DNA from: a virus
Taxonomy: Duplodnaviria; Heunggongvirae; Uroviricota; Caudoviricetes
Reading direction: 5' to 3' (one strand)
DNA: 44,644 nt
Virus record (IMG/VR): IMGVR_UViG_2563366806_000004
Location: 1-44,644 of that record
Positions 1-44,644 of the stretch are shown piece by piece. The notes beneath the pieces were generated by a model. That model had not been told where the DNA came from. It ran no database searches and saw only the letters and a list, made by a program, of their open reading frames with translations. Positions within the stretch are counted from its first letter, which is position 1, and the number at the start of each line of letters is the position of its first letter. A program made the translations under genes and the position numbers.

Positions 1-1284
1 TTACTTCTTCGCCTCTGCAACCACTTTACTACCCACGCCGCGGTTATTGTATTCCCACATGCGGTTGTAGTTAGTGTCATTCAGATTGCGCTGTATTTCG
101 TCGTTATCATCTACGCTGCCGGTATTACCCGCAAACGGACGATTAGAGATCACCGCATCGGCCCACGGTTTAGCCGTGTTAAAACCTTCGTTGATGGCGC
201 TATCACGGATCACCACCTGACCGTTGGTATTGGCATCAACATCCAGCGAGCGGCCCAGTTGCGCCACACCATCACCGAAAGCATTGAAACGGCTGTTTAC
301 GGCGAGGAAACCGTAGTAAATGTTGGACAGCGTAGCCGGTGCAAACACATACGCTTCTTGCTGAGTACGTGAGTTCACCACGCGGAATTCGGTGTTATCG
401 AACACCACTGCGCCGCGACCAGAAACGATATCCACATCCCCTTCAATGTAGCTGTTGGTCACCAGCGTACGCGGCTGACGATTCGTTTCCAGACGGTTCT
501 GCACACCGCTGTTGGTGACAAAGAAGGTGTTCTGACGACCGAGAATGTTAACGTTGTTAATCTGTACCTGGTCACCATCAGTACGCAGTGCCACCGCCGG
601 ATGGTTACCTGCATCTACGCTATCGCCCAGCGTGTTTTCGATGGTCAGATTTTGCAGTTGCAGGCCATTGTTTTGTGACCAGAAGACCGCAGAGCAGAGA
701 ACACCGATACTGTCGCTACGTTTGCTCTGGCAGCTATCGTACATATACCACGCTGGTTTACCTGGCATATATTTGCCGCGCGGGTTGACGTCGTGACGCC
801 AGTCGGCAGGGCTCATGCCACCATCAAGGGAAAGCCCAATCTTCACATCAATCGGTTTTTCACCTGTACCGTACAGAGTAATTCCACCCGGAGCGGCAGG
901 GACATATACCGTTCCCTGATACTCACCAGGCATCACGGCAATATACTGGCGCTTGTTGGTACGCTTGATAATTGCCGCATCTACCGCCGCCTGAATCGTG
1001 GTATGCGTTACACCTTGAGTGCCCGCCGGGCCGACAACAAATTCAGGTTGCGCAGGCAGGGTAATCGGGGAAGGATTCCACGCTGCAGCACCTGGTGTCA
1101 GGGATGCAAAATAGTGTTGAGCATCGAAATTCTGCGCTTCTTTTGCCGACAGAATCGGGCGAGAAGAGGTACCAGGCGCGGTTTGATCAGAAGGACGTTG
1201 ATCGGGCGGGGTTGAGCTACAGGCGGTCAGCGTCACGCCAAAAGCCAATGCCAGCGCCAGACGGGAAACTGAAAATGTGTTCAC
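1..1284 (-). CDS. ybhC: Pectinesterase-family lipoprotein YbhC (host chromosomal gene flanking attB-lambda)
   Basis: Complete 427-aa ORF with GTG start at 1284; N-terminal signal peptide with lipobox LTAC; sequence recognised as E. coli YbhC, the gene bordering the lambda attachment site. Confidence 0.8.
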   Translation of the reverse strand: MNTFSVSRLALALAFGVTLTACSSTPPDQRPSDQTAPGTSSRPILSAKEAQNFDAQHYFASLTPGAAAWNPSPITLPAQPEFVVGPAGTQGVTHTTIQAAVDAAIIKRTNKRQYIAVMPGEYQGTVYVPAAPGGITLYGTGEKPIDVKIGLSLDGGMSPADWRHDVNPRGKYMPGKPAWYMYDSCQSKRSDSIGVLCSAVFWSQNNGLQLQNLTIENTLGDSVDAGNHPAVALRTDGDQVQINNVNILGRQNTFFVTNSGVQNRLETNRQPRTLVTNSYIEGDVDIVSGRGAVVFDNTEFRVVNSRTQQEAYVFAPATLSNIYYGFLAVNSRFNAFGDGVAQLGRSLDVDANTNGQVVIRDSAINEGFNTAKPWADAVISNRPFAGNTGSVDDNDEIQRNLNDTNYNRMWEYNNRGVGSKVVAEAKK

Positions 1285-1330
1285 AGGTTGCTCCGGGCTA
1301 TGAAATAGAAAAATGAATCCGTTGAAGCCT

Positions 1331-1345
1331 GCTTTTTTATACTAA
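1331..1345. other. attL: attL core (15-bp lambda common core GCTTTTTTATACTAA)
   Basis: Exact lambda core sequence at the junction between host ybhC flank and the phage P' arm. Confidence 0.85.
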
Positions 1346-1425
1346 GTTGTCATTATAAAAAAGCATTGCTTATCAATTTGTTGCAACGAACAGGTCACTA
1401 TCAGTCAAAATAAAATCATTATTTG
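1346..1425. promoter_or_regulatory. Lambda P' arm with arm-type Int binding sites
   Basis: Sequence GTTGTCATTATAAAAAAGCATTGCTTATCAATTTGTTGCAACGAACAGGTCACTATCAGTCAAAATAAAATCATTATTTG recognised as the lambda P' arm, including tandem arm-type sites. Confidence 0.7.
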
Positions 1426-2489
1426 ATTTCAATTTTGTCCCACTCCCTGCCTCTGTCATCACGATACTGTGATGCCATGGTGTCCGACTTATGCCCGAGA
1501 AGATGTTGAGCAAACTTATCGCTTATCTGCTTCTCATAGAGTCTTGCAGACAAACTGCGCAACTCGTGAAAGGTAGGCGGATCCCCTTCGAAGGAAAGAC
1601 CTGATGCTTTTCGTGCGCGCATAAAATACCTTGATACTGTGCCGGATGAAAGCGGTTCACGACGAGTAGATGCAATTATGGTTTCTCCGCCAAGAATCTC
1701 TTTGCATTTATCAAGTGTTTCCTTCATTGATATTCCGAGAGCATCAACATGCAATGCTGTTGGGATGGCAATTTTTACGCCTGTTTTGCTTTGCTCGACA
1801 TAAAGATATCCATCTACGATATCAGACCACTTCATTTCGCATAAATCACCAACTCGTTGCCCGGTAACAACAGCCAGTTCCATTGCAAGTCTGAGCCAAC
1901 ATGGTGATGATTCTGCTGCTTGATAAATTTTCAGGTATTCGTCAGCCGTAAGTCTTGATCTCCTTACCTCTGATTTTGCTGCGCGAGTGGCAGCGACAGG
2001 GTTTGTTGTTATATGGCCTTCAGCTATTGCCTCTCGGAATGCATCGCTCAGTGTTGATCTGATTAACTTGGCTGATGCCGCCTTGCCCTCGTCTATGTAT
2101 CCATTGAGCATTGCCGCAATTTCTTTTGTGGTGATGTCTTCAAGTGGAGCATCAGGCAGCCCCCTCCTTATTGCTTTAATTTTGCTCATGTAATTTATGA
2201 GTGTCTTCTGCTTGATTCCTCTGCTGGCGAGGATTTTTTCGTAGCGATCAAGCCATGAATGTAACGTAACGGAATTATCACTGTTGATTCTCGCTGTCAG
2301 AGGCTTGTGTTTGTGTCCTGAAAATAACTCAATGTTGGCCTGTATAGCTTCAGTGATTGCGATTCGCCTGTCTCGGCCTAATCCAAACTCTTTACCCGTC
2401 CTTGGGTCCCTGTAGCAGTAATATCCATTGTTTCTTATATAAAGGTTAGGGGGTAAATCCCGGCGCTCATGACTTCGCCTTCTTCCCAT
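1419..2489 (-). CDS. int: Tyrosine integrase, lambda Int
   Basis: 356-aa ORF starting MGRRRSHERRDLPPNLYIRNNGYY, recognised as lambda Int; directly adjacent to attL. Confidence 0.95.
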   Translation of the reverse strand: MGRRRSHERRDLPPNLYIRNNGYYCYRDPRTGKEFGLGRDRRIAITEAIQANIELFSGHKHKPLTARINSDNSVTLHSWLDRYEKILASRGIKQKTLINYMSKIKAIRRGLPDAPLEDITTKEIAAMLNGYIDEGKAASAKLIRSTLSDAFREAIAEGHITTNPVAATRAAKSEVRRSRLTADEYLKIYQAAESSPCWLRLAMELAVVTGQRVGDLCEMKWSDIVDGYLYVEQSKTGVKIAIPTALHVDALGISMKETLDKCKEILGGETIIASTRREPLSSGTVSRYFMRARKASGLSFEGDPPTFHELRSLSARLYEKQISDKFAQHLLGHKSDTMASQYRDDRGREWDKIEIK

Positions 2490-2685
2490 TTCTGATCCTC
2501 TTCAAAAGGCTACCTGTTACTGGTCGATTTAAGTCAACCTTTACCGCTGATTCGTGGAACAGATACTCTCTTCCATCCTTAACCGGAGGAGGGAATATCC
2601 TGCATTCGCGCACCCATCGACGAACTGTTTCAAGGCTTCTTGGACGTCGCTGGCGTGCGTTCCACTCCTGAAGTGTCAAGTACAT
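2467..2685 (-). CDS. xis: Excisionase, lambda Xis
   Basis: 72-aa ORF MYLTLQEWNARQRRPRSLETVRRWVRE, overlapping the int start by 23 nt as in lambda. Confidence 0.9.
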   Translation of the reverse strand: MYLTLQEWNARQRRPRSLETVRRWVRECRIFPPPVKDGREYLFHESAVKVDLNRPVTGSLLKRIRNGKKAKS

Positions 2686-2900
2686 CGCAAAGTCTCCGCA
2701 ATTACACGCAAGAAAAAACCGCCATCAGGCGGCTTGGTGTTATTTCAGTTCTTCAATTCGAATATTGGTTACGTCTGCATGTGCTATCTGCGCCCACAGC
2801 ATCCAGTGGTCATAGCAGTCGTTGATGTTCTCCGCTTCGATAACCCTGTTGAATGGCTCTCCATTCCATTCTCCTGTGACTCGGAAGTGCATTTATCATC

Positions 2901-2929
2901 TCCATAAAACAAAACTCGCCGTAGCGAGT
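2901..2929 (-). terminator. Putative intrinsic terminator downstream of the 132-aa gene
   Basis: Hairpin ACTCGC-cgta-GCGAGT followed on the minus strand by TTTGTTTTATGG. Confidence 0.45.
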
Positions 2930-2992
2930 TCAGATAAAAGAAATCCCCGCGAGTGCGAGGATTGTTATTCACCTTTGACGGCAAGTTGCAGG

Positions 2993-3391
2993 TTAGCCAT
3001 GGTTAACCTCCTGCTCAATATTTTTAAGGTCATTTTCCGCATACAGTATTGCAGTCCTTGCTGCTCGCAACCGTGCTTTGGTGTTCTTTTCTTCGCGCTC
3101 AAGGTTGGCTACAGACTCGCGCAACTCATCACGGCGACGATGGAGTTGCTCAATCTCAGTGACGATATGCTCACCATCAGTAGCTACCTGCAGGATGTGC
3201 TCGAAGGGGTCAATAACGCAGCCGCACTTTGTGCAACGAACAACGCGATCAGTTTCACAAACCTCGATAGCCCGATGCTTACAGCTATGTTGTATGTAGT
3301 TTTTTCTGTCAGTTACAGTGATGTTCAGCAGTTTCTCTTCATTGCGCTTTGGCTGCACCAGAGAGATGACGTTGTCGCTTTCATTTTCCAT
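2993..3391 (-). CDS. Hypothetical protein with Cys/His-rich putative zinc-binding region
   Basis: 132-aa ORF; start overlaps stop of upstream gene (ATGA); CKHRAIEVCETDRVVRCTKCGC cysteine cluster. Confidence 0.55.
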   Translation of the reverse strand: MENESDNVISLVQPKRNEEKLLNITVTDRKNYIQHSCKHRAIEVCETDRVVRCTKCGCVIDPFEHILQVATDGEHIVTEIEQLHRRRDELRESVANLEREEKNTKARLRAARTAILYAENDLKNIEQEVNHG

Positions 3392-4191
3392 TACTTCGCC
3401 TCCAGCGGAGGTTCTGGTAGCGGCATCCAGTGAGTTGCTTGCTCAATACCATTACCCGGCTTAATCATTGCATCTCCGCGCCGAAAGGTGCTTCCGGTAT
3501 AGCGTGCGGAGCATATTAGCGGTTCAACCAGAGAGCTATCGAAATTCACCGAAATAAGCACGTTCTGGCCCTTTTCAGGCATTCGCTCACTACAGCTTAT
3601 CCAACCATCCGGAGTTAACGGAGAGTTGCCACCCTGAACAGTAGGCATATCCGGACCTTTGCGAATCGCCCTGGCAAGATCGATTTGGTCGTCGTACAAC
3701 CAGTCACCTGTTTGCGGATGATTGGCTTCTGCCAATTGTGCAGCCCATTCAAGGCCGTCTTTGTGACCTTGCAGATAGTCCAGCGGTAACTCATCACTAT
3801 TACTTACAGGTTCGGCCTGAAGCATGGCGGCGCGATAGGCGTTCCAGCCGACAGCTTTTCCGTGTTCAAACGCGCTGTCAAAGTCATCATCAATTTCCAT
3901 CGCAGCGGGCACAGATACCGGCGCTGGCGGGGAGGCGTAAAGCGGCGTTACTTCTCGCAGCGGGTCGGCATAAGCATTGCCACTATCGAAGCTGACGTTG
4001 TTTTTTGCCCCGCCTCCTGACAGCAACCACGCCACCGGCTCCGCTTCGAGCGATGCCAGTGCGATACGCGCATTATTAATCAGGAGGCTATCAGCAGGAG
4101 ATAAAACAACATGAGCGTTTCCCTCCGCATCAATTTCAGAATTCGTAATTTTTCTGAACAGCTTTGCCAGTTCTCTGGTAATAGTGCTCAT
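3391..4191 (-). CDS. DUF551-like prophage protein
   Basis: 266-aa ORF; C-terminal region DGWISCSERMPEKGQNVLISV...THWMPLPEPP resembles the DUF551 domain common in enterobacterial prophages. Confidence 0.55.
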   Translation of the reverse strand: MSTITRELAKLFRKITNSEIDAEGNAHVVLSPADSLLINNARIALASLEAEPVAWLLSGGGAKNNVSFDSGNAYADPLREVTPLYASPPAPVSVPAAMEIDDDFDSAFEHGKAVGWNAYRAAMLQAEPVSNSDELPLDYLQGHKDGLEWAAQLAEANHPQTGDWLYDDQIDLARAIRKGPDMPTVQGGNSPLTPDGWISCSERMPEKGQNVLISVNFDSSLVEPLICSARYTGSTFRRGDAMIKPGNGIEQATHWMPLPEPPLEAK

Positions 4192-10443: not shown

Positions 10444-10893
10444 TTACTTAACCAATGATGCTGCATATTCGATAAGGTAAAGATTTGGGGTCAGCCAAAT
10501 TTTTAACCAAGTCATATTGGTTACTACACCAATAATAAAAATCCCCCACAGAGTCAAAACTACAACCAATGGCATGATAAGAAGATTAATATCACCTTTG
10601 CTATCCCAAACCATTGTCGGCCTGTATTTGGGATTTCCTTTCTCCCATGAATATCCTTCATCACCGATTTTACCTGTCTCAACTCTTTGGCACTGCTTCT
10701 TCATAAACCAGAAAACCAGTGGGATTGTTAGAATGGCCATTAATGTTTTAATCAGACTGTCAACCATATTCCATAGCAGCAACTGATGAACAACATCAGG
10801 AATCTGTGCCTGGCTAAATGAAACAGCCGCGTCTATTCCATTACTGGCTTTTTGCAGTAGTTCTACGAGAATCTTGTTTGCTTGTTCTTCCAT
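10444..10893 (-). CDS. Two-pass membrane protein encoded by an AT-rich cassette (possible superinfection-exclusion or abortive-infection function)
   Basis: 149-aa ORF; two hydrophobic helices (LIKTLMAILTIPLVFWFM and INLLIMPLVVVLTLWGIFIIGVV); leader identical to that of the 156-aa gene; position left of N is where lambda and P22 carry sieB. Confidence 0.55.
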   Translation of the reverse strand: MEEQANKILVELLQKASNGIDAAVSFSQAQIPDVVHQLLLWNMVDSLIKTLMAILTIPLVFWFMKKQCQRVETGKIGDEGYSWEKGNPKYRPTMVWDSKGDINLLIMPLVVVLTLWGIFIIGVVTNMTWLKIWLTPNLYLIEYAASLVK

Positions 10894-10947
10894 ATCTCAC
10901 CTCAAATAAGTGGTTTGCTGCGAAAGTAAATACGCTTAAGTTACCTG

Positions 10948-11085
10948 TTATTTATCCCACCAAGTTCCGTATCTATCTATCCAGTTACACCAATCATCGA
11001 CACTCCATTTTGTTGTGTCGCATTTTGGCAACTGGCATGAATATCTACCTTCTTTGTAAAGTCGGCGTTTGACTTTCTTGAGCAT
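10948..11085 (-). CDS. Small Cys-containing hypothetical protein
   Basis: 45-aa ORF MLKKVKRRLYKEGRYSCQLPKCDTTKWSVDDWCNWIDRYGTWWDK directly after the N stop codon with GAGGTGAG Shine-Dalgarno; below the ORF-track length cut-off. Confidence 0.4.
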   Translation of the reverse strand: MLKKVKRRLYKEGRYSCQLPKCDTTKWSVDDWCNWIDRYGTWWDK

Positions 11086-11093
11086 GGCTCACC

Positions 11094-11426
11094 TCAATCG
11101 TAATAAGCTGGAATTGATTTTCCGCGTTGCTTCTGGCGGCCTGAGCAGGTCAACCCCATTTCACTGCGTGGCTTGCTGTACCATGTGCGCTGATTCTTGC
11201 GCTCAATACGCTGCAGGTTGCTTTCAATCTGTTCGTGGTATTCAGCCAGCACCGTAAGGTCTATCGGATTCAGTGCGCTTTCTACTCGTGATTTCGGTTT
11301 GCGATTCAGCGAGAGAATAGGGCGGTTAACTGGTTTTGCGCTTACCCCAACCAACAGGGGATTTGCTGCTTTCCATTGAACCTGTTTCTCTGCGCGACGT
11401 TCGCGGCGGCGTGTTTGTGCATCCAT
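11094..11426 (-). CDS. N: Antitermination protein N
   Basis: 110-aa ORF MDAQTRRRERRAEKQVQWKAANPLLVGVSAKPVNRPILSL, recognised as lambda N; nutL lies upstream. Confidence 0.9.
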   Translation of the reverse strand: MDAQTRRRERRAEKQVQWKAANPLLVGVSAKPVNRPILSLNRKPKSRVESALNPIDLTVLAEYHEQIESNLQRIERKNQRTWYSKPRSEMGLTCSGRQKQRGKSIPAYYD

Positions 11427-11694
11427 CTGGATTCTCCTGTCAGTTAGCTTTGGTGGTGTGGTGGCTGGTAGTCTAGCTCCAGCTTGTTGAGTCTCATTCG
11501 GAGGGGTATAACCGGCACCCCAGCGATTTTTCCATGCGACAACGTGCGCGTTATGGCGGCCTTATCGCCCGCGGCTCCCCATCTCGTCCACGCTATTGCT
11601 AGCGTTGGGAGCGCTTCACCGCTCAACAGTAGGTAAGCACTTGCCAGTGACTAGCTGGCTTCACCACACCCCAAAGCCTTCTGCTTTGAATGCT

Positions 11695-11725
11695 GCCCTT
11701 CTTCAGGGCTAAATTTTTAAGAGCC
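11695..11725 (-). promoter_or_regulatory. nutL: nutL (boxB hairpin GCCCTGAAGAAGGGC plus boxA-like GCTCTTA)
   Basis: Reverse complement of 11691..11724 reads GCTCTTAAAAATTTAGCCCTGAAGAAGGGCAGCA, matching lambda nutL. Confidence 0.8.
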
Positions 11726-11764
11726 TCACCTTCATGGTGGTCAGTGCGTCCTGTTGATGGCTAG

Positions 11765-11828
11765 ATAATCACAAATTGTGTTCGTGCTGTCAACACGAAA
11801 TGTGATTGTTTTTATCACAACACGTGTT
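11765..11828 (-). promoter_or_regulatory. pL promoter with three operator sites (oL)
   Basis: Three 15-bp sites of form ATCACA-N3-YGTGTT at 11768..11782, 11792..11806, 11814..11828; minus-strand -35 TTGACA (11793..11788) and -10 GATTAT (11770..11765), 17-nt spacer. Confidence 0.65.
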
Positions 11829-11865
11829 TTCATTGATTTTTAAGGTAATTTAATTTTCTTTGGGC

Positions 11866-11889
11866 AACAAAAAACCCGCCGAAGCGGGT
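11866..11889 (-). terminator. Intrinsic terminator after the repressor gene
   Basis: Stem ACCCGC/GCGGGT with loop CGAA, followed on the minus strand by TTTTTTGTTG. Confidence 0.6.
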
Positions 11890-11914
11890 TTGATGTTTTT
11901 AAGTGGCGGGTATA

Positions 11915-12556
11915 TCAGGAGAATTTCATCATCATCTGCACTGCTACGCCGATTATCTTGCAGTTGCCGTCGATTGGGATCAACGGATAGGCAGGGTTAA
12001 GCCCTTTCAGGTATTTGTTACCGCCATCAATGATTAGCTTCTTGAACGTGGCTTCATTAGCATCTGTCAGCTTCGCAACTACCAGGCTTCCATTAACGGC
12101 TTCCTTTCCAGTGTCGAACAGAACCAGCATACCCTCAGGAACGCTAAGGCCGGTAGGAGCTGTCATTGAGTCGCCCTGAACCCTGAGCCAGAAGGCGTCA
12201 CCGACAACGTGACAATCTGATTCATACCACTCATCCACTGCCTGAGGGTTGTACGGCTCTACGGCCTCACTCCATGCACCTGCGCTAACCCAGCTAATCA
12301 ACGGAAACTTTTCCCCTGGCTTGTATTGTCCCTGATAGTTGTCGCCAAAAAGCAGTTCTGCCGGAGCGACGCCCAAAGCTTTAGCTATTACCTCTGCGTC
12401 ATCAACACTAACGCTTCTGGTTCCTGATTCATAGTTGCCGATCCGAGATTGTGAAGCCCAGCCGCAAAGCTCCGCCAGAGCCTTCTGTGAAAGCCCTTTA
12501 TCTTCCCGTAATCGCTTGATACGCGCGGCGATAGTTTCTGTTCTGTTCATGCGCAT
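11915..12556 (-). CDS. cI: CI-like prophage repressor (XRE-type HTH plus S24 LexA-like autopeptidase domain)
   Basis: 213-aa ORF; N-terminal HTH (LSQKALAELCGWASQSRIGNYESG); Ala-Gly cleavage site (SAGAW); GDSM serine motif and downstream Lys; flanked by oL and oR; not lambda cI. Confidence 0.8.
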   Translation of the reverse strand: MRMNRTETIAARIKRLREDKGLSQKALAELCGWASQSRIGNYESGTRSVSVDDAEVIAKALGVAPAELLFGDNYQGQYKPGEKFPLISWVSAGAWSEAVEPYNPQAVDEWYESDCHVVGDAFWLRVQGDSMTAPTGLSVPEGMLVLFDTGKEAVNGSLVVAKLTDANEATFKKLIIDGGNKYLKGLNPAYPLIPIDGNCKIIGVAVQMMMKFS

Positions 12557-12561
12557 TTTAT

Positions 12562-12627
12562 ATCACATTCCGTGGTTTAAGGCTTTACACGATTTGTGTT
12601 GACTATCAATCACAATATGTGTTTAAT
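12562..12627 (+). promoter_or_regulatory. pR promoter with three operator sites (oR)
   Basis: 15-bp sites at 12562..12576, 12586..12600, 12609..12623 matching ATCACA-N3-YGTGTT; -35 TTGACT 12599..12604, -10 TTTAAT 12622..12627. Confidence 0.65.
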
Positions 12628-12660
12628 AAAGACTGAGTGAACTAGCTCTTAAGGAAACCT

Positions 12661-12876
12661 ATGAACAACATTGCCAACGAACGGAAAAAGCTTGGCATCA
12701 CTCAATCTGCGTTAGCAGGCGCGTGTGGCTGGAACCAGTCCCGCTTAGCTAACTACGAGTCAGGTATCCGGACTCCAGATTTAGAGTCGTGCCGTCGCCT
12801 GGTAAAGGCGCTGAATAAATTGGGGAGCAAGACAACGCTAGATGGCTTGTTCCCGCCGGAACACAAAGCCGCTTAA
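12661..12876 (+). CDS. cro: Cro-like HTH regulator
   Basis: 71-aa ORF with XRE-type HTH (LGITQSALAGACGWNQSRLANYESG), first gene rightward of oR, RBS AAGGAAAC. Confidence 0.7.
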   Translation: MNNIANERKKLGITQSALAGACGWNQSRLANYESGIRTPDLESCRRLVKALNKLGSKTTLDGLFPPEHKAA

Positions 12877-12884
12877 GACATTCC

Positions 12885-12916
12885 CGCTCTTACACATCCC
12901 AGCCCTGAAAAAGGGC
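12885..12916 (+). promoter_or_regulatory. nutR: nutR (boxA CGCTCTTA and boxB GCCCTGAAAAAGGGC)
   Basis: boxA at 12885..12892 and boxB hairpin at 12902..12916 match lambda nutR. Confidence 0.8.
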
Positions 12917-12995
12917 ATCAAATTAAACCACACCTATGGTGTATGCATTTATTTGCATACATTCAATCAATTGTTATCTAAGGAAATACTTACAT

Positions 12996-13274
12996 ATGCA
13001 ACTTACAAGTACTCGCAAGAAAGCGAATGCAATTACAAGCAACATCCTGAATCGAATTGCTGTACGTGGTCAGCGAAAGGTTGCCGACGCGTTAGGGATT
13101 AATGAATCGCAAATTTCGCGATGGAAAGACAGCTTCATCCCAAAAATGGGAATGCTTCTGGCTGTTCTTGAATGGGGTGTTGAAGACGAGGAGTTGGCGG
13201 AACTGGCTAAGAAAGTAGCCAGAATGCTGACAAAAGAAAAAGCCCCGAAGAACGGCGAATTCTTCGAGGCCTGA
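12996..13274 (+). CDS. cII: Transcriptional activator CII
   Basis: 92 aa from ATG 12996 with the lambda cII leader TTATCTAAGGAAATACTTACATATG; KVADALGINESQISRWK...PKMGMLLAVLEWGV resembles lambda CII. Confidence 0.8.
   Translation: MQLTSTRKKANAITSNILNRIAVRGQRKVADALGINESQISRWKDSFIPKMGMLLAVLEWGVEDEELAELAKKVARMLTKEKAPKNGEFFEA
13231..13270 (-). terminator. Minus-strand intrinsic terminator overlapping the cII 3' end (oop-RNA-like position)
   Basis: 11-bp stem with one mismatch (GCCCCGAAGAA/TTCTTCGAGGC), 7-nt loop, followed on the minus strand by TTTTTCTTTTG. Confidence 0.45.
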
Positions 13275-13308
13275 TGTAGAAAGACTGGATCAATCCACAG
13301 GAGTAATT

Positions 13309-13953
13309 ATGACATACGAAAATGACAAATTCCAGGTTCTGAAGAGCATGAAGGTGCCAGATGATTTTAAATCAAATGGCTTTGTTTATGTGCTTTCTAA
13401 TGAGTGCATGCCAGGAATTTATAAGATTGGGATGACTAAGCATTCACCAGAAGTTAGGGCTAAAGAAATTTCAGCCTCTACTGGCGTTCCTAAGCCATTT
13501 AAGGTGATAGCAGCCTTTCATTCAAATAATCCCGCATCAGATGAAAAACTCATTCATAAAGCCTTTGCAAAAGAGAGGCTTAGTGATAATCGAGAGTTTT
13601 TCAAGCTTGAAGATAATGAGCTTTCTGAATCTCTAAATGAAATAAGGGCGCTGGTTGGCCCTGAAAGAAATGGCGAGACGGCAGAATACGCAATTTACGA
13701 CTCATTCATTTCTTTTCGCCATGAAAATGAGCTTGATCTTAATGAGGAGCTTATAGAGCAAGGTCTGGGTAGTGTAGTTGGTCATCTTCCTGCGGTGAAA
13801 AATTTCCTTATTCGCGCCGGAATTGATTACGCGAAGCAACTGATAAGCAAATATAACTCATCGATAGTTATTAATACAGATGGCAGTGTGGTGATGGTTA
13901 AGTCTCTTGAAGCCCAATGCTTTGATGCGGAGGTTGGAAATGAGCCTGGCTGA
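13309..13953 (+). CDS. T5orf172 / GIY-YIG-like domain protein (accessory gene between cII and O)
   Basis: 214-aa ORF, RBS CAGGAG; N-terminal NGFVYVLSNECMPGIYKIGMTKHSPEVRAKEIS...PFKVIAAFHSNN...REFFKL resembles the T5orf172 (GIY-YIG-like) domain; AT-rich; 3' end overlaps O start by 14 nt. Confidence 0.6.
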   Translation: MTYENDKFQVLKSMKVPDDFKSNGFVYVLSNECMPGIYKIGMTKHSPEVRAKEISASTGVPKPFKVIAAFHSNNPASDEKLIHKAFAKERLSDNREFFKLEDNELSESLNEIRALVGPERNGETAEYAIYDSFISFRHENELDLNEELIEQGLGSVVGHLPAVKNFLIRAGIDYAKQLISKYNSSIVINTDGSVVMVKSLEAQCFDAEVGNEPG

Positions 13954-34906: not shown

Positions 34907-37163
34907 CGCAGATACGATTAAAGATTTCCTTGTTTCGCTGGGATTCGATATCGATCAGGCTGGCGCTAATAAGTTTGAAGCCGTGCTGAAAGGCGTTACA
35001 GCTAACGTTCTGAAGGTCGGCGCGGTGGTGGAAGGCGCAGCGCTGAGCATTGTCGGATTTACCACTCAGATCGCGAACGGTCTGGATAAAATTTACTGGG
35101 CATCCCAGCGGACGGGGGCCAGTGTCCAGGGCATCAAAGCGCTGGGATACGCCGCATCGCAAACCGGTGCCAGCGCCGAGTCGGCTATGTCCTCCCTCGA
35201 AGGGCTGGCCGGTTTCATGCGTAGCAATCCGGGCGCGGAAGGCTTCCTGAACCGCCTGGGCGTCCAGACTCGCGATGCCAGCGGAAAGATGCGTGATACT
35301 GCGGCCATCTTTACTGGCGTTGGGCAAAAGCTCAACAACATGCCGTATTACCGCGCGAAACAATACGCGCAGATGCTTGGCATCGATGAAAACACGCTGA
35401 TGGCGATGCGGCGCGGCATGAATGGCTTTACCGCCGATTACCAGTCGATGCTGCAAAAGACAGGGTTCAACGCTGATAAAGCGGCTGTTCAGTCCAACAA
35501 ATTCATGACGTCCATGCGCGGGCTTACGTCGCTGTTCGGCATCATGCGGGACAAGATCGGCTCAAACCTCGCTGGTGGCCTGGCTGGTTCGCTGGACAGC
35601 CTGCGGCGGCGCATCCTCGACAATTTCCCGAAGATTGAAGAGACGCTGACCAGAGTTATTAAAGGCGTGATCTGGCTTGCGAACGCATTCACGAGAATGG
35701 CGTGGCGGCTGATACAGGGCGCTGGCTCTGTCATCGACTGGTGGAAGCGTCTTGACGATGGCAGTAAAAATCTGCTGAAAATATTCGGTGCTCTACTTGT
35801 CGCATGGCGTCTGCTTAATTCTGCGTTCCTGAAATCCCCGATTGGAATTATCACCACGCTGATTCTGGCGATCGGATTACTCTATGACGATTATCAGACG
35901 TGGAAAGAAGGCGGTAAAAGCCTGATTGACTGGTCCAAGTGGGAGCCTGCAATAGAAAAGGCGAAAAAGGCAATTCTCTGGCTGCGCGATAAGCTTCTGG
36001 GGCTGAAAGATTCTGTTGGTGGATGGCAGAACTCGCTGGAAATTTTGGCTACTTTCATCGCTGGGGTATGGGTAACAAAAGTATTGGGAGCATTCGCAAA
36101 AATATCCGGTCTTCCGATACCTCCATGGCTTAAATTATGGGGAGCGTATGCTGGTTACCTGGTTTCAGATCGTGAAAACATAAAAGCCAGTGCTAAATCA
36201 TCTTTGGACTATACCAAAAGGAACATTGGTGATGCTCTTGCTACGGTTGGCATCAAAACCGACCTTGGGCGAAAAGATGTTAGCGAGGTAAGAGAATGGC
36301 CCGCATGGATGGATTGGCTGCATGGTGGCCCAGGTAAGATTATTCGTCAGGCGCAAAGCAATGGCGTCGTTTATGGCGATAATGTTCAGCCTGACATTCC
36401 CGGGGCGGAACAGCATGTTCGTAGTAATGAAATTGCCCCGCATGAAAGAGATGAAATAAAAAACCGTCAGCAGGCTGCTAATGGTTATCTTGAAAAAATC
36501 TCAGACGGGATTGCCAAAATCGGTAATTTATTTTTCTCCCCGGCTGGAGCTGCTGAAATCTCTCCAAATATATCGGGTGACCCCTCCCAGTTTGCGCAAT
36601 CAGTCAAACGTCCACAGGCCACAGCCCAGGGCAAAGTATTGCTCGACTGGATGGGGCCAATGTTCAATAAACTTGAGTCGCTTTATCAACTTCCAGCTGG
36701 TCTATTGAAAAGTGTGGCGATAACCGAGTCAGGTGGTAACCAGTTCGCCATGTCCGGCGCAGGCGCGAAAGGTCTGTTTCAGTTTATGGATGGTACGGCG
36801 CGCGACATGGGCCTTCGCGGAAACGATGTATTCGACCCGCAAAAGTCAGCTCAGGCCGCAGCTAAGTACCTCAGCCAGCTGTTGCGGCAGAACGGCGGAG
36901 ACCTTAGCAAAGCACTGGCATCATATAACTGGGGGATCGGGAATGTTAAGCGCTATGGCATGGGGTTAATGCCGCAGGAAACGCGTAACTACATTCCGAA
37001 AGTAATGAGCAACATGCCCACCAGCGCCCCGGTGATTCAGCAGGAAACGAATATTAACATCCACGGCGTTTCCGATCCGCGCGAGGCTGCCCGTTTGACT
37101 GTTGATCGTCAAAAGGGCGTGAATTCACAGTTAACCCAGCAACTCCCCGCAGGACCGAGATAA
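34896..37163 (+). CDS. Tail tape measure protein with C-terminal lytic transglycosylase (SLT) domain
   Basis: 755-aa ORF after the frameshifted chaperone; C-terminal AITESGGNQFAMSGAGAKGLFQFMDGTARDMGL...YNWGIGNV resembles the SLT domain. Confidence 0.65.
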   Translation: MSGNADTIKDFLVSLGFDIDQAGANKFEAVLKGVTANVLKVGAVVEGAALSIVGFTTQIANGLDKIYWASQRTGASVQGIKALGYAASQTGASAESAMSSLEGLAGFMRSNPGAEGFLNRLGVQTRDASGKMRDTAAIFTGVGQKLNNMPYYRAKQYAQMLGIDENTLMAMRRGMNGFTADYQSMLQKTGFNADKAAVQSNKFMTSMRGLTSLFGIMRDKIGSNLAGGLAGSLDSLRRRILDNFPKIEETLTRVIKGVIWLANAFTRMAWRLIQGAGSVIDWWKRLDDGSKNLLKIFGALLVAWRLLNSAFLKSPIGIITTLILAIGLLYDDYQTWKEGGKSLIDWSKWEPAIEKAKKAILWLRDKLLGLKDSVGGWQNSLEILATFIAGVWVTKVLGAFAKISGLPIPPWLKLWGAYAGYLVSDRENIKASAKSSLDYTKRNIGDALATVGIKTDLGRKDVSEVREWPAWMDWLHGGPGKIIRQAQSNGVVYGDNVQPDIPGAEQHVRSNEIAPHERDEIKNRQQAANGYLEKISDGIAKIGNLFFSPAGAAEISPNISGDPSQFAQSVKRPQATAQGKVLLDWMGPMFNKLESLYQLPAGLLKSVAITESGGNQFAMSGAGAKGLFQFMDGTARDMGLRGNDVFDPQKSAQAAAKYLSQLLRQNGGDLSKALASYNWGIGNVKRYGMGLMPQETRNYIPKVMSNMPTSAPVIQQETNINIHGVSDPREAARLTVDRQKGVNSQLTQQLPAGPR

Positions 37164-38095: not shown

Positions 38096-39157
38096 ATGTC
38101 TCTTAACTGGATGCGCCATTTTGAGCTGCAACTGTTGGACCAGAACGGGCAGGGCGTTTCCCTGTCTGACTTTAAGGTCACGTTCCAGATCGAGTGGGCA
38201 GACACACGCTGGCCGCGCGTGGCGAACGTGAAAATTTACAACCTTTCGACCGATACCACGAACAAGATACTGGGGCAGGAGTTTGCAAAAATTCGCATCA
38301 TTGCCGGGTATGACGGTATTGCGCCGGATGTTGATGCGAGCCAGGTTGGTGTCGCCCGGGAGATTTCACCAGACCAGGTAGGGCAGGTGAACGGTCAGAA
38401 CTACGGCCTGATATTTGACGGTGATATTCGCTTCACCGTCACCGGGAAGGACAACATTACGGATTCCTGGGTGCTGATTCAGGCCATCAGTAACCACGAA
38501 GCGTTCCTCTACGCGACTACCATCACCACGCTTGCCGCTGGCTATACCGTTGCGGATCTGCACCGGGCGACGATGCAGGATTTCAACGCGTTCGGCGTGA
38601 CGCAGGGCATTACCGGCGACTTTCCTGATACTGTGTTTCCTCGTGGCCGCGCGATTTACTCATCCACCCGTAACGTGATGGACAATATTGCTGCGCAGTG
38701 CAAAGCGACATGGCAGTTAGTGGATGGGCAGGTGCAGATGGTGCCGGAGGATAAATACATTCACGAAGCCATCGTGCTGAATGCCGATACTGGCCTGATC
38801 GGTATGCCGCAACAAACGATGGGCGGCGGAGTAAACGTGCGGTGCCTGATAAACCCAAACATCCGTATTAATGGTCTTATCCAGCTCGATCAGGCTTCGG
38901 TGTACCGCGCCGCGCTCGGCAATAGCGAAATCGCACAGTCGCCCGGGCGTATCACCGAAACAGAAGAGAACGGCAACCGTGTGCTGACCGGCACGACGTC
39001 ACAGGCTGCCAGCATTGCGACGGATGGCGTTTATATCGTCAAAGCTATCGACTATACTGGCGACACCAGAGGTCAGGCGTGGTACATGGATTTGATGTGT
39101 TTTGCGCGTGGCAGCCGCGATTTGCAGAGTAACGCATCACTTAACCGGACGTTTTAA
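38096..39157 (+). CDS. Putative baseplate hub-like protein
   Basis: 353-aa ORF in tail operon. Confidence 0.4.
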   Translation: MSLNWMRHFELQLLDQNGQGVSLSDFKVTFQIEWADTRWPRVANVKIYNLSTDTTNKILGQEFAKIRIIAGYDGIAPDVDASQVGVAREISPDQVGQVNGQNYGLIFDGDIRFTVTGKDNITDSWVLIQAISNHEAFLYATTITTLAAGYTVADLHRATMQDFNAFGVTQGITGDFPDTVFPRGRAIYSSTRNVMDNIAAQCKATWQLVDGQVQMVPEDKYIHEAIVLNADTGLIGMPQQTMGGGVNVRCLINPNIRINGLIQLDQASVYRAALGNSEIAQSPGRITETEENGNRVLTGTTSQAASIATDGVYIVKAIDYTGDTRGQAWYMDLMCFARGSRDLQSNASLNRTF

Positions 39158-40472: not shown

Positions 40473-41213
40473 ATGCCAATTCCAACTCAATCACAGATCG
40501 GCGGCGAGCAGCAGACCGCGCAGGCCATAGCCGATTCGGTGTCTACCCAGATGCGCGTAGCGATGCCAGGCATCATTCAGTCGTTCGATCCTGACGCTGT
40601 AACCTGCACAGTAGAAGTGGCGCTTCGCGGTATTGTTGGCGACGGCTCCACCGAATTAAAACCGCTGGTGGATGTTCCTGTCATCTTCCCGCGCGGCGGC
40701 GGCTGCACGCTGACCTTTCCGGTTAAAGAAGGCGACGAGTGCCTGCTGCTCTTTGCCGACCGTTGCATCGATTTCTGGTGGCAGAGCGGCGGCGTGCAGG
40801 AGACCGTCGACCCGCGCCAGCATGACTTATCTGATGCGTTCGCCATCGTTGGCCCACAGTCGCAAGCACGGAAAATCAGCGGTATCAGTACCAGCGCCGC
40901 GCAGCTGCGAACCGATGATGGTGCGGCGTTTGTAGAAGTCGCCGCAGGACATAACATCACCATTAAAACACCGGGCCAGCTTACAGCTACGGCTGAAGGT
41001 GGAACGACAATCACATCCCCGACTATCACGCTGAACGGCAACGTAACGATTAATGGCAACTTGTCTCAGGGAATGGGCGAAAGCGGCGGTACTGCGACGA
41101 TGCTTGGGCCGGTGACGGTAACGAATGACGTAACAGCTTCTGGTATCAGTGTCGCCACGCATAAACATGGCGGAGTACAGACTGGCGGGGGAACTACCGG
41201 AGGGCCGCAATAA
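40473..41213 (+). CDS. Baseplate central spike protein (Gp138 N-terminal-domain-like)
   Basis: 246-aa ORF; LVDVPVIFPRGGGCTLTFPVKEGDECLLLFADRCIDFWW resembles the Gp138_N domain; C-terminal Gly/Thr-rich repeats. Confidence 0.5.
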   Translation: MPIPTQSQIGGEQQTAQAIADSVSTQMRVAMPGIIQSFDPDAVTCTVEVALRGIVGDGSTELKPLVDVPVIFPRGGGCTLTFPVKEGDECLLLFADRCIDFWWQSGGVQETVDPRQHDLSDAFAIVGPQSQARKISGISTSAAQLRTDDGAAFVEVAAGHNITIKTPGQLTATAEGGTTITSPTITLNGNVTINGNLSQGMGESGGTATMLGPVTVTNDVTASGISVATHKHGGVQTGGGTTGGPQ

Positions 41214-41566
41214 TGCGATACCGTCGCGAAGATACTGAAGGCGATTACACTTTCGGCCAGGGTGACGATACTTTCCTTATCGACAGTCCGGAATGTGTCG
41301 CCCAGGCCGTAAAAACCCGTTTCGAGCTGTGGCGCGGTCAGTGGTTTCTCGATCTGACGGAAGGCACGCCGTATGTTCAGTCAGTGCTTGGGAAGCAGCG
41401 ATCAGATGTCTACATCCTGGCTATACGCGAACGCATACAGGATACACCGGGCGTTCTGTCGATTCTTTCCTTCGATACCAATTATGACGGCACCAGCCGA
41501 CGCGTCACTTTCACTTCCTCCATTGACACAATCTACGGCCAGACGACTGTAAAAAGCGAGGCATAA
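41213..41566 (+). CDS. Putative baseplate protein
   Basis: 117-aa ORF between spike and baseplate-J-like genes, ATGA overlap. Confidence 0.4.
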   Translation: MRYRREDTEGDYTFGQGDDTFLIDSPECVAQAVKTRFELWRGQWFLDLTEGTPYVQSVLGKQRSDVYILAIRERIQDTPGVLSILSFDTNYDGTSRRVTFTSSIDTIYGQTTVKSEA

Positions 41567-42766
41567 ATGGCTTTGAACCTCGACACGCTGGGGCTATCGG
41601 CAACGGTAACCGCCCAGGGGATTAGTGCGCCTGATTACCAGACAATCCTAGATACACTGACCAGCTATTTCAGGCAGATTTACGGTAGTGATGCCTACCT
41701 CGAACCAGACAGCAAAGACGGGCAGATGGTCGCGCTGGTGGCTCTTGCCGTGCATGACGCTAACAACACCGCTATCGGGATCTACAACTCTTTTTCACCG
41801 ACGACAGCGCAGGCCGCAGCGCTTAGCAGCAATGTGAAAATTAACGGGATCACGCGAAAAGTAGCGACAAACTCTACTGCTGACCTTCTGTTAACCGGTA
41901 CGGCAGGCACGACTATCACGAATGGCTCCGCACGGGATAAAAACGGCATTATCTGGAATTTTCCCGCAAGTGTAGCGATCGGCGTTGATGGTACTGTGCT
42001 GGTGACGGCCACATGTGCGAATAGCGGTTCGGTTGCTGCGATGGCCGGGACTATCACCACCATTAATACACCGACTCGCGGCTGGGTGTCGGTAACCAAC
42101 CCGGCTGCGGCTACTGTCGGATCACCAGCTGAAACCGACGCAGAGCTGCGCATTCGGCAGGGGCAAAGCGTCGCGCTACCATCGATCACACCGTTTGAAG
42201 GTGTCGACGGTGCAATAGCTAACGTTGCTGGCGTGACACGTCACAAGTTGTATGAGAACGACACAGGAACAACAGACAGCAACGGGCTGCCGCCGCACTC
42301 AATTTCCGCCATCGTCGATGGTGGGGATGTTACCGAAATAGCCCAGACCATCAGGGGGAATAAAGGACAGGGAACGGCAACCTACGGGACAACTTCTGTC
42401 ACGGTGCCGGATACTTATGGTAATCCTCACGTCATCAGTTTTTCGCGCTCTACCGACGTACCGATTTTCGTAGCCATTACCCTGAAAGTTTTTACCGGGT
42501 ATACCTCTCAAATCGGCGAGCAGATCAAACAGGCTGTTGCCGACTATATTAATGGCCTGACAATTGGCGACGACGTTCTGCTGAGCCGTATTTATTCCCC
42601 GGCAAACCTCGGCGTTGTGAGCGGCGGGAATGCCCGCTATTACGATATTACCGACCTGCTGATCGGTAAGTCGTCTGGCAGCGTATCGGCATCAAACATT
42701 GATATTGCCTATGATGCTTCAGCGTTCTGTAGCACCGCGAATATCAGTATCACGGTGACCTCATGA
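41567..42766 (+). CDS. Baseplate J-like protein
   Basis: 399-aa ORF in the position and size expected of baseplate J; followed by tail fibre genes. Confidence 0.45.
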   Translation: MALNLDTLGLSATVTAQGISAPDYQTILDTLTSYFRQIYGSDAYLEPDSKDGQMVALVALAVHDANNTAIGIYNSFSPTTAQAAALSSNVKINGITRKVATNSTADLLLTGTAGTTITNGSARDKNGIIWNFPASVAIGVDGTVLVTATCANSGSVAAMAGTITTINTPTRGWVSVTNPAAATVGSPAETDAELRIRQGQSVALPSITPFEGVDGAIANVAGVTRHKLYENDTGTTDSNGLPPHSISAIVDGGDVTEIAQTIRGNKGQGTATYGTTSVTVPDTYGNPHVISFSRSTDVPIFVAITLKVFTGYTSQIGEQIKQAVADYINGLTIGDDVLLSRIYSPANLGVVSGGNARYYDITDLLIGKSSGSVSASNIDIAYDASAFCSTANISITVTS

Positions 42767-43443
42767 GCAAATACACCGAACTGATCACTAACTACCACGC
42801 TACCAAGCCACTCTTTTTTGACCATATAGATCTGAGCACCCGCCCGCTGATTGATGTGTCCAGCACTATGTCAGGGCTTATAACAGCCTTCGATATCGAT
42901 ACTGCTGTCGGTGTACAGCTCGACATCCTCGGTCTGTGGATCGGACGCAGTCGCATAGTCAGCCAGCCAATTAGCGGAGTTTATTTCAGCTGGGACACTG
43001 ACGGGCTTGGGTATGACCAGGGCATCTGGCAAGGGCCATATGATCCTGATTCTGGCTATACGACGCTAAGCGATGAGACGTACCGCATCATTCTGAAAGC
43101 GAAAATCGCTATCAACAACTGGGACGGTCGGAACGACTCTCTGCCTCCCATCCTTGACGCTGCTACCGCAGGCTCAGGCCTGAGGATGCAGATCGTCGAC
43201 AACCAGGACATGACGATTTCGGTCTGGGTTTTCCCTGAAACTGATATTTCTGATGTGTCTCTCGAACTGATCGCCGCTATCAAACATGGCTATCTCACCG
43301 TTAAATCAGCTGGCGTATGGGCCGGTGATGTTGAAACGCCTTCGGTAGAAACACCGTCAGAAGGCTCTAAATTCTTTGGGTTTGATATGGATAACGAATA
43401 CATCGGCGGGTTCGATGTTGGAGCATGGGGGACAATACTCTAA
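42763..43443 (+). CDS. Putative baseplate/tail protein
   Basis: 226-aa ORF, ATGA overlap, immediately upstream of the tail fibre gene. Confidence 0.4.
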   Translation: MSKYTELITNYHATKPLFFDHIDLSTRPLIDVSSTMSGLITAFDIDTAVGVQLDILGLWIGRSRIVSQPISGVYFSWDTDGLGYDQGIWQGPYDPDSGYTTLSDETYRIILKAKIAINNWDGRNDSLPPILDAATAGSGLRMQIVDNQDMTISVWVFPETDISDVSLELIAAIKHGYLTVKSAGVWAGDVETPSVETPSEGSKFFGFDMDNEYIGGFDVGAWGTIL

Positions 43444-44207
43444 TGGCAATAAACAACTTTAAACCTTTCGCGCTTGATCCGAACGCTAACGTCACCTCAC
43501 AAGCTGACTGGGAAGCACTTCCGGCTCTGCTTTCAGGGTTTACGGCAGGTAAAGCATCCAGCGCACAGGTCAACAAAGCTATTCGGCAAGCCAGCTTTAT
43601 CGCGGCAGCGTTGGCGCAGTACACCGCCAACAAAAGCAGGCTGGATGTGCTTGATGATGGAGACCTGAACGGGTTTATATCCAAAATGGGGACCGCTTTC
43701 GGGAAAGATTTCCAGGCGCTTGACGCCACGCTGACGGCATTGGCTGGTCTAGCAACTGGTGCAAATAAACTCCCGTATTTCACTGGAACTGATAAAGCAG
43801 CTCAGACTGATTTAACTTCTGTTGGCCGTGACATTATTGGGAAAAATACTATTGCTGACATTCTCACATACCTTGGTTTGGGAGAAGCGGCGAAAAGGAA
43901 TGTGGGGACTGGGGCGAATCAGATACCTGATATGTCATCATATGCATCAGGTTCAGGCTGGCGAAAAATGCCAGATGGTTCAATTGAACAGTGGGGACGA
44001 ATTAATTTCCCGACTAACGCCGCGGCGGTATCTACAAATGTGACTTTCCCCATTCCTTTTACGCAGGAGCCAGACGTAGTGATTGTATATGACGGCGGTT
44101 TTGGTGGTGGGAATATGTGGGGCGCAACTAACTGGACGAAAACAGGTTTCGTTGCTCATTGTAACTATGGCTTTGAAGGTGGAGCCTTCTACGCGAAAGG
44201 GCGTTAA
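43443..44207 (+). CDS. Tail fibre protein
   Basis: 254 aa from ATG 43443 (overlaps upstream stop); MAINNFKPFALDPNANVTSQADW N-terminus; followed by assembly protein gene. Confidence 0.55.
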   Translation: MAINNFKPFALDPNANVTSQADWEALPALLSGFTAGKASSAQVNKAIRQASFIAAALAQYTANKSRLDVLDDGDLNGFISKMGTAFGKDFQALDATLTALAGLATGANKLPYFTGTDKAAQTDLTSVGRDIIGKNTIADILTYLGLGEAAKRNVGTGANQIPDMSSYASGSGWRKMPDGSIEQWGRINFPTNAAAVSTNVTFPIPFTQEPDVVIVYDGGFGGGNMWGATNWTKTGFVAHCNYGFEGGAFYAKGR

Positions 44208-44209
44208 TT

Positions 44210-44644
44210 ATGAAATATTTGTATGTTGATAATCTGGCGTACCCTTATGCCCTCCAGTCTGTTTACGCTGCAAAAGGCCAATGGCCCGAAGGTAAAGGCG
44301 TGGATATAGACGAAGCTATTTTCAGGGAATATTTCCATGATACGCCGCCTGACGGTAAGTACAGAATTACCGGAGACGATGGAATGCCAGCATGGGCAGA
44401 TGTTCCACCGCCAACACGTGAAGAACAAATTGCATCAGCCGAAACTAAAAAGCAGCAATTGATTAATCAGGCCAACGATTATATGAACAGTAGACAATGG
44501 GTTGGTAAAGCGGCTATTGGTCGTCTGAAAGGTGAGGAACTGGCGCAATATAATTTGTGGCTGGATTATCTGGACGCACTGGAGCTGGTCGATACTTCCA
44601 GTGCACCAGATATTGAATGGCCGGAAGAACCAGACACAATGTAA
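44210..44644 (+). CDS. Tail fibre assembly protein (Tfa-like)
   Basis: 144-aa ORF directly after the tail fibre gene; ends with stop at the window edge. Confidence 0.55.
   Translation: MKYLYVDNLAYPYALQSVYAAKGQWPEGKGVDIDEAIFREYFHDTPPDGKYRITGDDGMPAWADVPPPTREEQIASAETKKQQLINQANDYMNSRQWVGKAAIGRLKGEELAQYNLWLDYLDALELVDTSSAPDIEWPEEPDTM

Follow-up and report, generated by a model that had tools for sequence, protein, structure and literature searches.

The immunity group of bacteriophage mEp213 was reportedly defined by plating in 1999, and its cassette is said to have been available in GenBank since 2012. mEp213 (JQ182733 / NC_019720 / PV340538) is a Mexican isolate from human faeces (PMC12315714) and serves as the representative of an immunity group of its own; double lysogens of lambda and mEp213 can be made, and mEp213 lysogens have been induced with mitomycin C (PMC3442831). 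The same cassette has also been sequenced in phage Bas106 (‘CurroJimenez’, PQ850599). The present report concerns a copy of this cassette in a 44,644-bp stretch of tailed-phage DNA (IMG/VR record IMGVR_UViG_2563366806_000004, positions 1 to 44,644; hereafter ‘the window’), in which the region at and around positions 11765 to 12627 very probably represents the immunity module of an integrated lambdoid prophage, built as a bistable repressor/Cro switch of the lambda type.

The mEp213-type cassette is already known and is of a textbook kind. The GenBank records of mEp213-type phages annotate the repressor, Cro and the promoter pRE, and not the operators, and the literature searched yielded neither a description of the operators of the mEp213 group nor a paper giving their sequences; the operator map appears to be the sole part of the cassette that had not been described.

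The correspondence with the two sequenced phages is close to complete. Window positions 11755-12884, which hold the left operator (OL), the terminator, the repressor gene, the right operator (OR) and cro, are 100% identical in mEp213; the cassette in Bas106 is likewise 100% identical, with no difference over 11400-12700, and that of ECP1 (KY979108) encodes a repressor that is 99.5% identical. The repressor and Cro proteins are the same in the window, mEp213 and Bas106. Over 11400-12700 mEp213 departs from the window at three single-base differences only (11711, 11725 and 11754), all of them to the left of pL in the nutL/leader region; beyond the cassette, its cII is of another type, and the T5orf172 gene that follows cII in the window and in Bas106 is absent from it. 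On this comparison the cassette is placed in the immunity group already set by mEp213, and immunity in both directions between this phage and an mEp213 lysogen would be expected.

Organization of the immunity module

From left to right, positions 11094-13274 hold the N gene (minus strand), a long leader, nutL, pL with three operator-like sites, a terminator, the repressor gene (minus strand), three further sites with pR, cro, nutR and a cII-family gene. The repressor gene and cro are divergent and are separated by a 105-bp control region that contains OR1 to OR3, and the OL triplet lies over pL about 0.8 kb away (OL2 to OR2, 794 bp). The elements of the switch itself are as follows.

11765-11793, minus strand: pL, with -35 TTGACA (11793..11788), a 17-bp spacer and -10 GATTAT (11770..11765); found by promoter scan (10 of 12 matches), arrangement kept in relatives
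11768-11782: OL1, ATCACAAATTGTGTT; exact match (plus) to ATCACA-N3-YGTGTT, shares 3 bp with the pL -10, kept in relatives
11792-11806: OL2, AACACGAAATGTGAT; exact match (minus), shares 2 bp with the pL -35, kept in relatives
11814-11828: OL3, ATCACAACACGTGTT; exact match (plus), kept in relatives
11872-11891, minus strand: intrinsic terminator, AAACCCGC-TTCG-GCGGGTTT followed by TTTTGTT; found by terminator scan, 3' of the repressor gene
11915-12556, minus strand: prophage repressor, 213 amino acids (211 from the conserved second ATG at 12550); PF01381 HTH_3 (N-terminal, E=3e-14) and PF00717 Peptidase_S24 (C-terminal, E=3e-25)
12557-12564, minus strand: predicted pRM -10 (GATATA or TATAAA), inside or beside OR3; placed from the sequence
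12562-12576: OR3, ATCACATTCCGTGGT; one mismatch to ATCACA-N3-YGTGTT, a conserved block in the 16-locus alignment
12586-12600: OR2, TACACGATTTGTGTT; two mismatches to ATCACA-N3-YGTGTT, shares 2 bp with the pR -35
12599-12627, plus strand: pR, with -35 TTGACT (12599-12604), a 17-bp spacer and -10 TTTAAT (12622-12627); read from the sequence and placed by conservation
12609-12623: OR1, ATCACAATATGTGTT; exact match (plus), shares 2 bp with the pR -10
12661-12876, plus strand: Cro, 71 amino acids, HTH_3 type (PF01381, E=1.3e-12)

A heterologous segment of 1.12 kb (11760-12882) is set between lambda-type flanks, its limits being drawn where homology to lambda ends (11759) and where it restarts (12883), and it has the form of a classical imm substitution. 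On the left, homology to lambda (97%) covers N as far as 11473 and appears again at 11665-11759, ending at the start region of pL; on the right it restarts (99%) seven bases past the cro stop codon and continues through rutA, nutR, rutB and tR1 to the ATG of cII. The description of a non-lambda immunity region between lambda-type flanks, which had been given in an initial annotation of this DNA, is thus well founded, with N, nutL and nutR at 97-99% identity to lambda; the inclusion of cII among the lambda-type flanking elements has to be withdrawn, for that protein is of the Sf6/HK446 type and shares no more than 53% identity with lambda cII. The host gene ybhC stands at the start of the window and is followed by int and xis, and the cassette therefore sits in an integrated prophage, where the module would be the one that maintains lysogeny.

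The operator motif

The initial annotation had recognized six sites of the form ATCACA-N3-YGTGTT, three on each side. All six are present at those places and four of them match exactly, while two of the OR sites are imperfect. The two halves of the motif are versions of a single half-site, and a palindrome, AWCACR-N3-YGTGWT, describes the sites better: its second position is W and its sixth is R. With up to one mismatch allowed, a search of all 44,644 bp for this palindrome gives OL1-3 and OR1-3 and nothing else, six matches compared with a mean of 1.45 and a maximum of 5 in shuffled controls (0 of 100 reaching six). An apparent seventh site at 11819-11833 (two mismatches) was rejected as a frame-shifted overlap of OL3.

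The centre-to-centre spacings are 24 and 22 bp in OL and 24 and 23 bp in OR. As had been proposed, the sites overlap the predicted promoter hexamers, with OL2 and OL1 on the -35 and -10 of pL and OR2 and OR1 on the -35 and -10 of pR; the limits first given for the region, 11765 and 12627, are the exact outer ends of the two -10 hexamers.

Comparative evidence that the sites are operators

The case for these sites acting as operators is carried by a comparison of 118 loci that encode relatives of the repressor (38 from species-representative genomes and 80 from IMG/VR). The recognition helix QSRIGNYE is encoded in 32 of them, with repressors 70-100% identical, and every one of those 32 loci contains at least three matches to the motif, usually six (185 in total over 112 kb). 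QSRIGNYE is missing in all reading frames from the other 86, one of which (L066) has lost the N-terminus of its repressor to a contig end and still displays the OL triplet; the remaining 85 loci, which encode different helices, gave seven scattered single matches in approximately 341 kb, none having more than one. In the positive loci the triplets stand at fixed offsets from the start and stop of the repressor gene. Strict co-occurrence of the six sites with the recognition helix across the 118 loci argues that they act as operators.

OR and OL were aligned for 16-17 non-identical loci, which include repressors only 70-94% identical, and the result points in the same direction: the half-sites and the promoter hexamers are conserved, while the three central bases and the DNA between sites vary freely. 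Positions 3 and 4 of the half-site (C and A) are invariant in 51 unique sites. In every relative aligned, the two outer bases of the promoter-distal (left) half of OR2 are degenerate, which suggests that OR2 is intrinsically weaker and dependent on cooperativity, as it is in lambda.

The alternative, that the repeated 15-mers are not operators and instead arose with the duplication of a promoter (one of pL and pR being derived from the other) or are chance palindromes in AT-rich intergenic DNA, draws on the like layout of pL and pR, on the fact that part of each site is promoter hexamer sequence, and on the observation that, with two mismatches allowed, ATCACA-N3-YGTGTT occurs across the window at only about twice the chance level (13 found, 6.3 expected). 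Neither origin accounts for the conservation of OL3 and OR3, which lie outside the promoter hexamers, nor for half-sites that stay fixed in diverged relatives as the central 3 bp and the spacers change; moreover, the motif tracks the recognition helix (33 of 33 loci, counting L066, against 0 of 85), and no shuffled sequence held six matches at one mismatch or fewer. This alternative can be given next to no probability.

Binding by a host factor such as CRP, whether instead of or besides the phage repressor, was also considered. The half-sites contain TCACA and TGTGA, which are the consensus pentamers of CRP, whose site has the form TGTGA-N6-TCACA. The order and spacing of the pentamers here are wrong for that protein, however, because within a site they read TCACA-N5-TGTG, and between neighbouring sites TGTGA and TCACA are spaced by 9 bp; on this ground the reading of the sites as CRP sites was rejected. 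A strict co-occurrence with one phage recognition helix would also be unexpected for a host-factor site, and a role for such a factor is extremely unlikely.

The most distant of the relatives, from Izhakiella australiensis (L004, 1900-2800), encodes a repressor that is 70% identical with the same helix 3. It keeps OL1-3 at identical spacing over TTGACA-N17-GATCAT, together with OR1 and OR3, and has a different, arginine-rich N-like open reading frame (ORF) after pL.

The repressor and Cro

The repressor aligns with the full-length lambda cI structure 3bdn (HMMER, E=4.9e-27), with VSAGAW falling on VQAGMF, GDSMT on GNSMT and TFKKLI on TFKKLI. In this alignment Ala92-Gly93, Ser130 and Lys173 correspond to Ala111-Gly112, Ser149 and Lys192 of cI, which bears out the earlier recognition of LexA-like Ala-Gly and Ser/Lys motifs in the protein, and Glu29 aligns with the positive-control residue Asp38 of lambda.

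Identity is unevenly distributed between the two domains. The C-terminal domain is 71% identical to that of the 434-type repressor and the N-terminal DNA-binding domain only 37%; the corresponding values for lambda cI are 38% and 30%. The repressor would thus be a domain mosaic in which a 434-like C-terminal domain is joined to a distinct DNA-binding domain. The next-nearest phage repressors are those of 434, Sf101, HK446 and HK633 (54-56%; for 434, 54-59% over the full length), and that of HK620 is at 51%.

Cro shares 47% identity with the helix-turn-helix domain of the repressor over 45 amino acids (E=6e-13), and their recognition helices are nearly identical (NQSRLANYESG in Cro, SQSRIGNYESG in the repressor). 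A shared helix of this kind would be expected if both proteins read one set of operators.

The initial annotation had regarded the repressor as probably SOS-inducible, and this assessment agrees with the intact residues of the S24 peptidase domain and with the induction by mitomycin C of lysogens of mEp213, whose repressor is identical (PMC3442831). That induction, taken by itself, fits a second route equally well, in which the main part is played not by RecA-stimulated self-cleavage but by an antirepressor, or by some other factor under SOS control, from another part of the prophage (P22 immI, Gifsy and 186-type systems being examples); a P22-like prophage with the same cassette does have a Rha-family regulator. 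Nevertheless, the repressor retains its cleavage site and its catalytic Ser and Lys, the C-terminal domain is 71% identical to that of the 434-type repressor and clearly homologous to that of lambda cI, and the presence of the same cassette in three unrelated virion backgrounds argues for self-sufficiency. Induction through a separate factor is accordingly judged unlikely, and self-cleavage of the repressor is preferred.

Comparison with lambda, 434, P22 and phage 21

Lambda shares with this module its gene order, its tripartite operators (spaced by 24 and 20 bp in OL and by 23 and 24 bp in OR, nearly as here), the self-cleaving S24 C-terminal domain of its repressor, and the N/nutL and nutR flanks at 97-99% identity. 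It differs in that its cI is only about 34% identical overall (33.6-35%), its Cro has no detectable similarity to the HTH_3 Cro found here, it carries rexA and rexB, of which the window has neither, and its OL2 and OR2 are 2359 bp apart rather than 794 bp. The imm-lambda sequence TATCACCG does not occur in 11700-12700.

When the sites are widened by one base on each side they become 17-bp dyads with A-W-C-A-C at positions 2-6, and the lambda consensus half TATCACCGC (lambda TATCAC) shows this core in an identical register. Positions 7-8 are C-G in the 17-bp site of lambda and R-N here. Lambda OR2, TAACACCGTGCGTGTTG (L122, 3075-3091), is a single mismatch from the operator consensus of the present system, and the other lambda operators are three to four mismatches away. 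An 11-mer, GTGTTGACTAT, comprising the end of OR2 and the -35 of pR, is identical in lambda and in the window (within 12585-12609).

Gln36-Ser37 of the repressor align with Gln44-Ser45 of lambda cI (HMMER), and helix 3 begins with Gln-Ser in both repressors and in both Cro proteins. In lambda co-crystals, Gln44 and Ser45 contact A2 and the G opposite C4. The difference in specificity should therefore come chiefly from positions 7-8 and from the remainder of helix 3. A further suggestion is that the operator code is a close derivative of that of lambda and that weak cross-binding persists between the two heteroimmune systems (for instance, with the present repressor or Cro binding lambda OR2, or lambda cI binding the sites described here). 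This is speculative, with a slim chance of being right, and such binding is unlikely to matter in practice; if true, it would mean regulatory cross-talk in polylysogens, and it could add to the mutual interference reported on inducing lambda/mEp213 double lysogens.

Phage 434 has the same layout, a Cro of the same HTH_3 kind and the closely similar C-terminal repressor domain described above. It differs in the N-terminal domain of the repressor, where the helix is SQSRIGNYESG here and TSQQSIEQLENG in the 434-like protein of L009, and in carrying a gene for a ‘repressor protection protein’ between cI and N, a slot that is empty here; 11700-12700 contains no sites of the imm434 form ACAA-N6-TTGT. 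The C2 repressor of P22 and the phage 21-type repressor in DE3 are 47.6% and 48.6% identical, respectively, and have the two-domain S24 architecture in common with the present protein. Like this module, P22 has no gene between repressor and OL. The recognition helix and operator sequence differ in P22 immC and in phage 21, and the flanks here are of the lambda N/nut type and not of the P22 gene 24 type; half-sites of the P22 type are absent from 11700-12700.

The comparison with 434, P22 and 21 that the initial annotation had called for therefore separates the repressor and operators from each of those groups, and the match was found in mEp213 instead. A-W-C-A-C-R appears to be the half-site that sets specificity, and the repressor would read it with a helix 3 beginning Gln-Ser. 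This combination differs from those of lambda, 434 and P22/21, and the phage is therefore predicted to be heteroimmune to them.

The terminator and the slot between repressor and OL

The hairpin and T-tract of the terminator are kept at the same place in the relatives with three different stem sequences, which supports its reality. The only match in an Rfam scan of 10800-13400 (E<=1), to rsmX over the terminator and the 3' end of the repressor gene, was dismissed because its 20 bits fall below the gathering score of 56.

That only a terminator stands between the repressor gene and OL, leaving the rexAB-type slot empty, was correctly noted at the outset: from the repressor stop (11915) to OL3 (11828) there are 86 bp, which contain only the hairpin (11872-11891) and T-tract and no ORF, and tblastn with lambda RexA and RexB found no homologue in the whole window (best E 0.93-1.1). 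An empty slot is ordinary, because its contents vary from phage to phage: lambda has rexAB, 434 has the gene annotated as ‘repressor protection protein’ (hex), and P22, with 38 bp between c2 and OL, has none. In seven relatives (L056, L058, L060 and L062-L065), whose repressors are 76-82% identical, a gene for a 117-amino acid lipoprotein (lipobox LLSGC, phrog_3135; 2163-2516 in L058) lies between the repressor gene and the terminator. Its position between the repressor gene and the terminator/OL, where lambda has rexAB, places it in the repressor operon, and it is probably lysogen-expressed cargo. The interval from cI to OL thus appears to be a variable cargo position, empty here and occupied by the lipoprotein gene in relatives, by hex in 434 and by rexAB in lambda.

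A model for the switch

By analogy with lambda, 434 and P22, repressor dimers in a lysogen would bind cooperatively at OR1/OR2 and OL1/OL2 and occlude the -35 and -10 elements of pR and pL. Measured from the ATG at 12550, the centres of OR3, OR2 and OR1 are at -19, -43 and -66; the values from the start of lambda cI are -19, -42 and -66. No Shine-Dalgarno sequence precedes the repressor gene, and in L068 and L071 only the second ATG is conserved; from these features we infer that the pRM mRNA begins close to the ATG at 12550 and has little or no leader. By binding OR2, whose centre is near -43 of pRM, the repressor may then activate its own leaderless transcript, and OR3 may provide negative autoregulation, possibly aided by an OL-OR loop formed through the lambda/434-like C-terminal domains. 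Transcripts from pRM or pRE would stop at the terminator at 11872-11891, short of OL.

Upon DNA damage, RecA filaments are expected to prompt the repressor to cleave itself at Ala92-Gly93 through its Ser130/Lys173 dyad. Thereafter pL and pR would fire, with N acting at the lambda-type nutL and nutR, and Cro, binding to the same sites, would shut off pRM and later the early promoters.

Several observations weigh against such a switch, or against parts of it. pR failed the stringent promoter scan, having a T where an A is required at position 2 of its -10, and was placed by conservation, its element GTGTTTAAT being invariant in 15 of 16 diverged relatives. The same scan did not return pRM either, the hexamers of which are weak and were placed by inference. 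In the Izhakiella locus, which may be a decayed prophage, a convincing OR2 and an upstream HTH_3 cro are both missing. For the repressor, the literature searched yielded no measurements of binding, no footprints and no mapped transcript starts. Finally, although nothing differs in its repressor, Cro or operators, Bas106 reportedly forms clear plaques on K-12 ‘without obvious defects in lysogeny control genes’, and the cassette alone is therefore no guarantee of temperate behaviour.

The sole difference between the window and Bas106 over 11400-13300 is at 13084, which is C in the window and T in Bas106 (L002) and changes Ala30 of cII to Val in the helix-turn-helix region. Alanine occupies this position in all other cII homologues examined, and over 11400-13300 phage Huey, which makes turbid plaques, shows 100% identity to the window. 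The Ala30Val substitution is a candidate cause of the clear plaques of Bas106.

The flanking regions

The features on either side of the heterologous segment are the following.

11094-11426, minus strand: N antiterminator, lambda type, 110 amino acids; PF11438 N36 (E=1.2e-25), 93% amino acid identity to lambda N
11474-11664, minus strand: variable insert in the pL-N leader, 191 bp in place of 80 bp of lambda; defined by the break in lambda homology
11695-11725, minus strand: nutL, with boxB GCCCTGAAGAAGGGC (11709..11695) and boxA GGCTCTTAA (11725..11717); 11665-11759 is 96.8% identical to lambda 35489-35583, which carries the annotated nutL
12885-12916, plus strand: nutR, with boxA CGCTCTTA (12885-12892) and boxB GCCCTGAAAAAGGGC (12902-12916); 12883-12998 is 99% identical to lambda 38247-38362, which carries the annotated rutA, nutR and rutB
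12996-13274, plus strand: cII-family activator, 92 amino acids; PF05269 (Phage_CII, E=1.8e-42), 53% identity to lambda cII, Sf6/HK446 type
13005-13018, minus strand: putative pRE core, TTGC-N6-TTGT; the homologous place carries the annotated pRE in mEp213

At the DNA level, 11170-11473 is 97% identical to lambda 35104-35408. The lambda-like arms that border the leader insert pair into a long stem, and the fold of 11420-11760 (minus strand, 341 nt) reaches -132 kcal/mol (z = -4.76); this stem resembles the N-leader structure of the RNase III type. The same leader variant is found in HK633, Sf101, mEp043 and mEp213. A 60-amino acid ORF with a TTG start within the leader (11444-11626) is annotated in Bas106 only and has no PHROG match. 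The boxA of nutL is GGCTCTTAA in the window and Bas106 and CGCTCTTAA in lambda and mEp213, the first base being G versus C, and one change (11711) falls in the spacer between boxA and boxB.

Between cII and the replication gene O, the window encodes a 214-amino acid T5orf172/MUG113 (GIY-YIG-like) protein (13309-13953, plus strand), also present in Bas106. At this point mEp213 has an ORF of 53 amino acids resembling HK97 gp53, and another prophage has a DUF2740 ORF; the position is a variable cargo slot. Immediately to the left of N, at the place of sieB in lambda and P22, lie two genes, one for a predicted membrane protein of 149 amino acids (phrog_3054; 10444-10893, minus strand) and the other a 45-amino acid ORF (phrog_1871; 10948-11085, minus strand). 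These two are possible exclusion or cargo genes.

The window as a whole is a mosaic prophage. Its early region is Bas106-like (51% of 1-25000 at 99%), and its late genes are nearest to Citrobacter phage Omnitron and include myovirus-type baseplate genes (the ends inspected being 1-4000 and 40600-44644).

Distribution and significance

The cassette occurs in 14 of 5426 complete E. coli genomes, one of these copies being in a P22-like prophage at ybhC, and its known backgrounds are a siphovirus (mEp213), a podovirus (Bas106) and that P22-like prophage. The finding has little significance beyond annotation. Its value there is an explicit, comparatively supported operator map, with the consensus AWCACR-N3-YGTGWT, for the mEp213 immunity group, which can be used in prophage annotation and in picking heteroimmune lambdoid switches as orthogonal parts.

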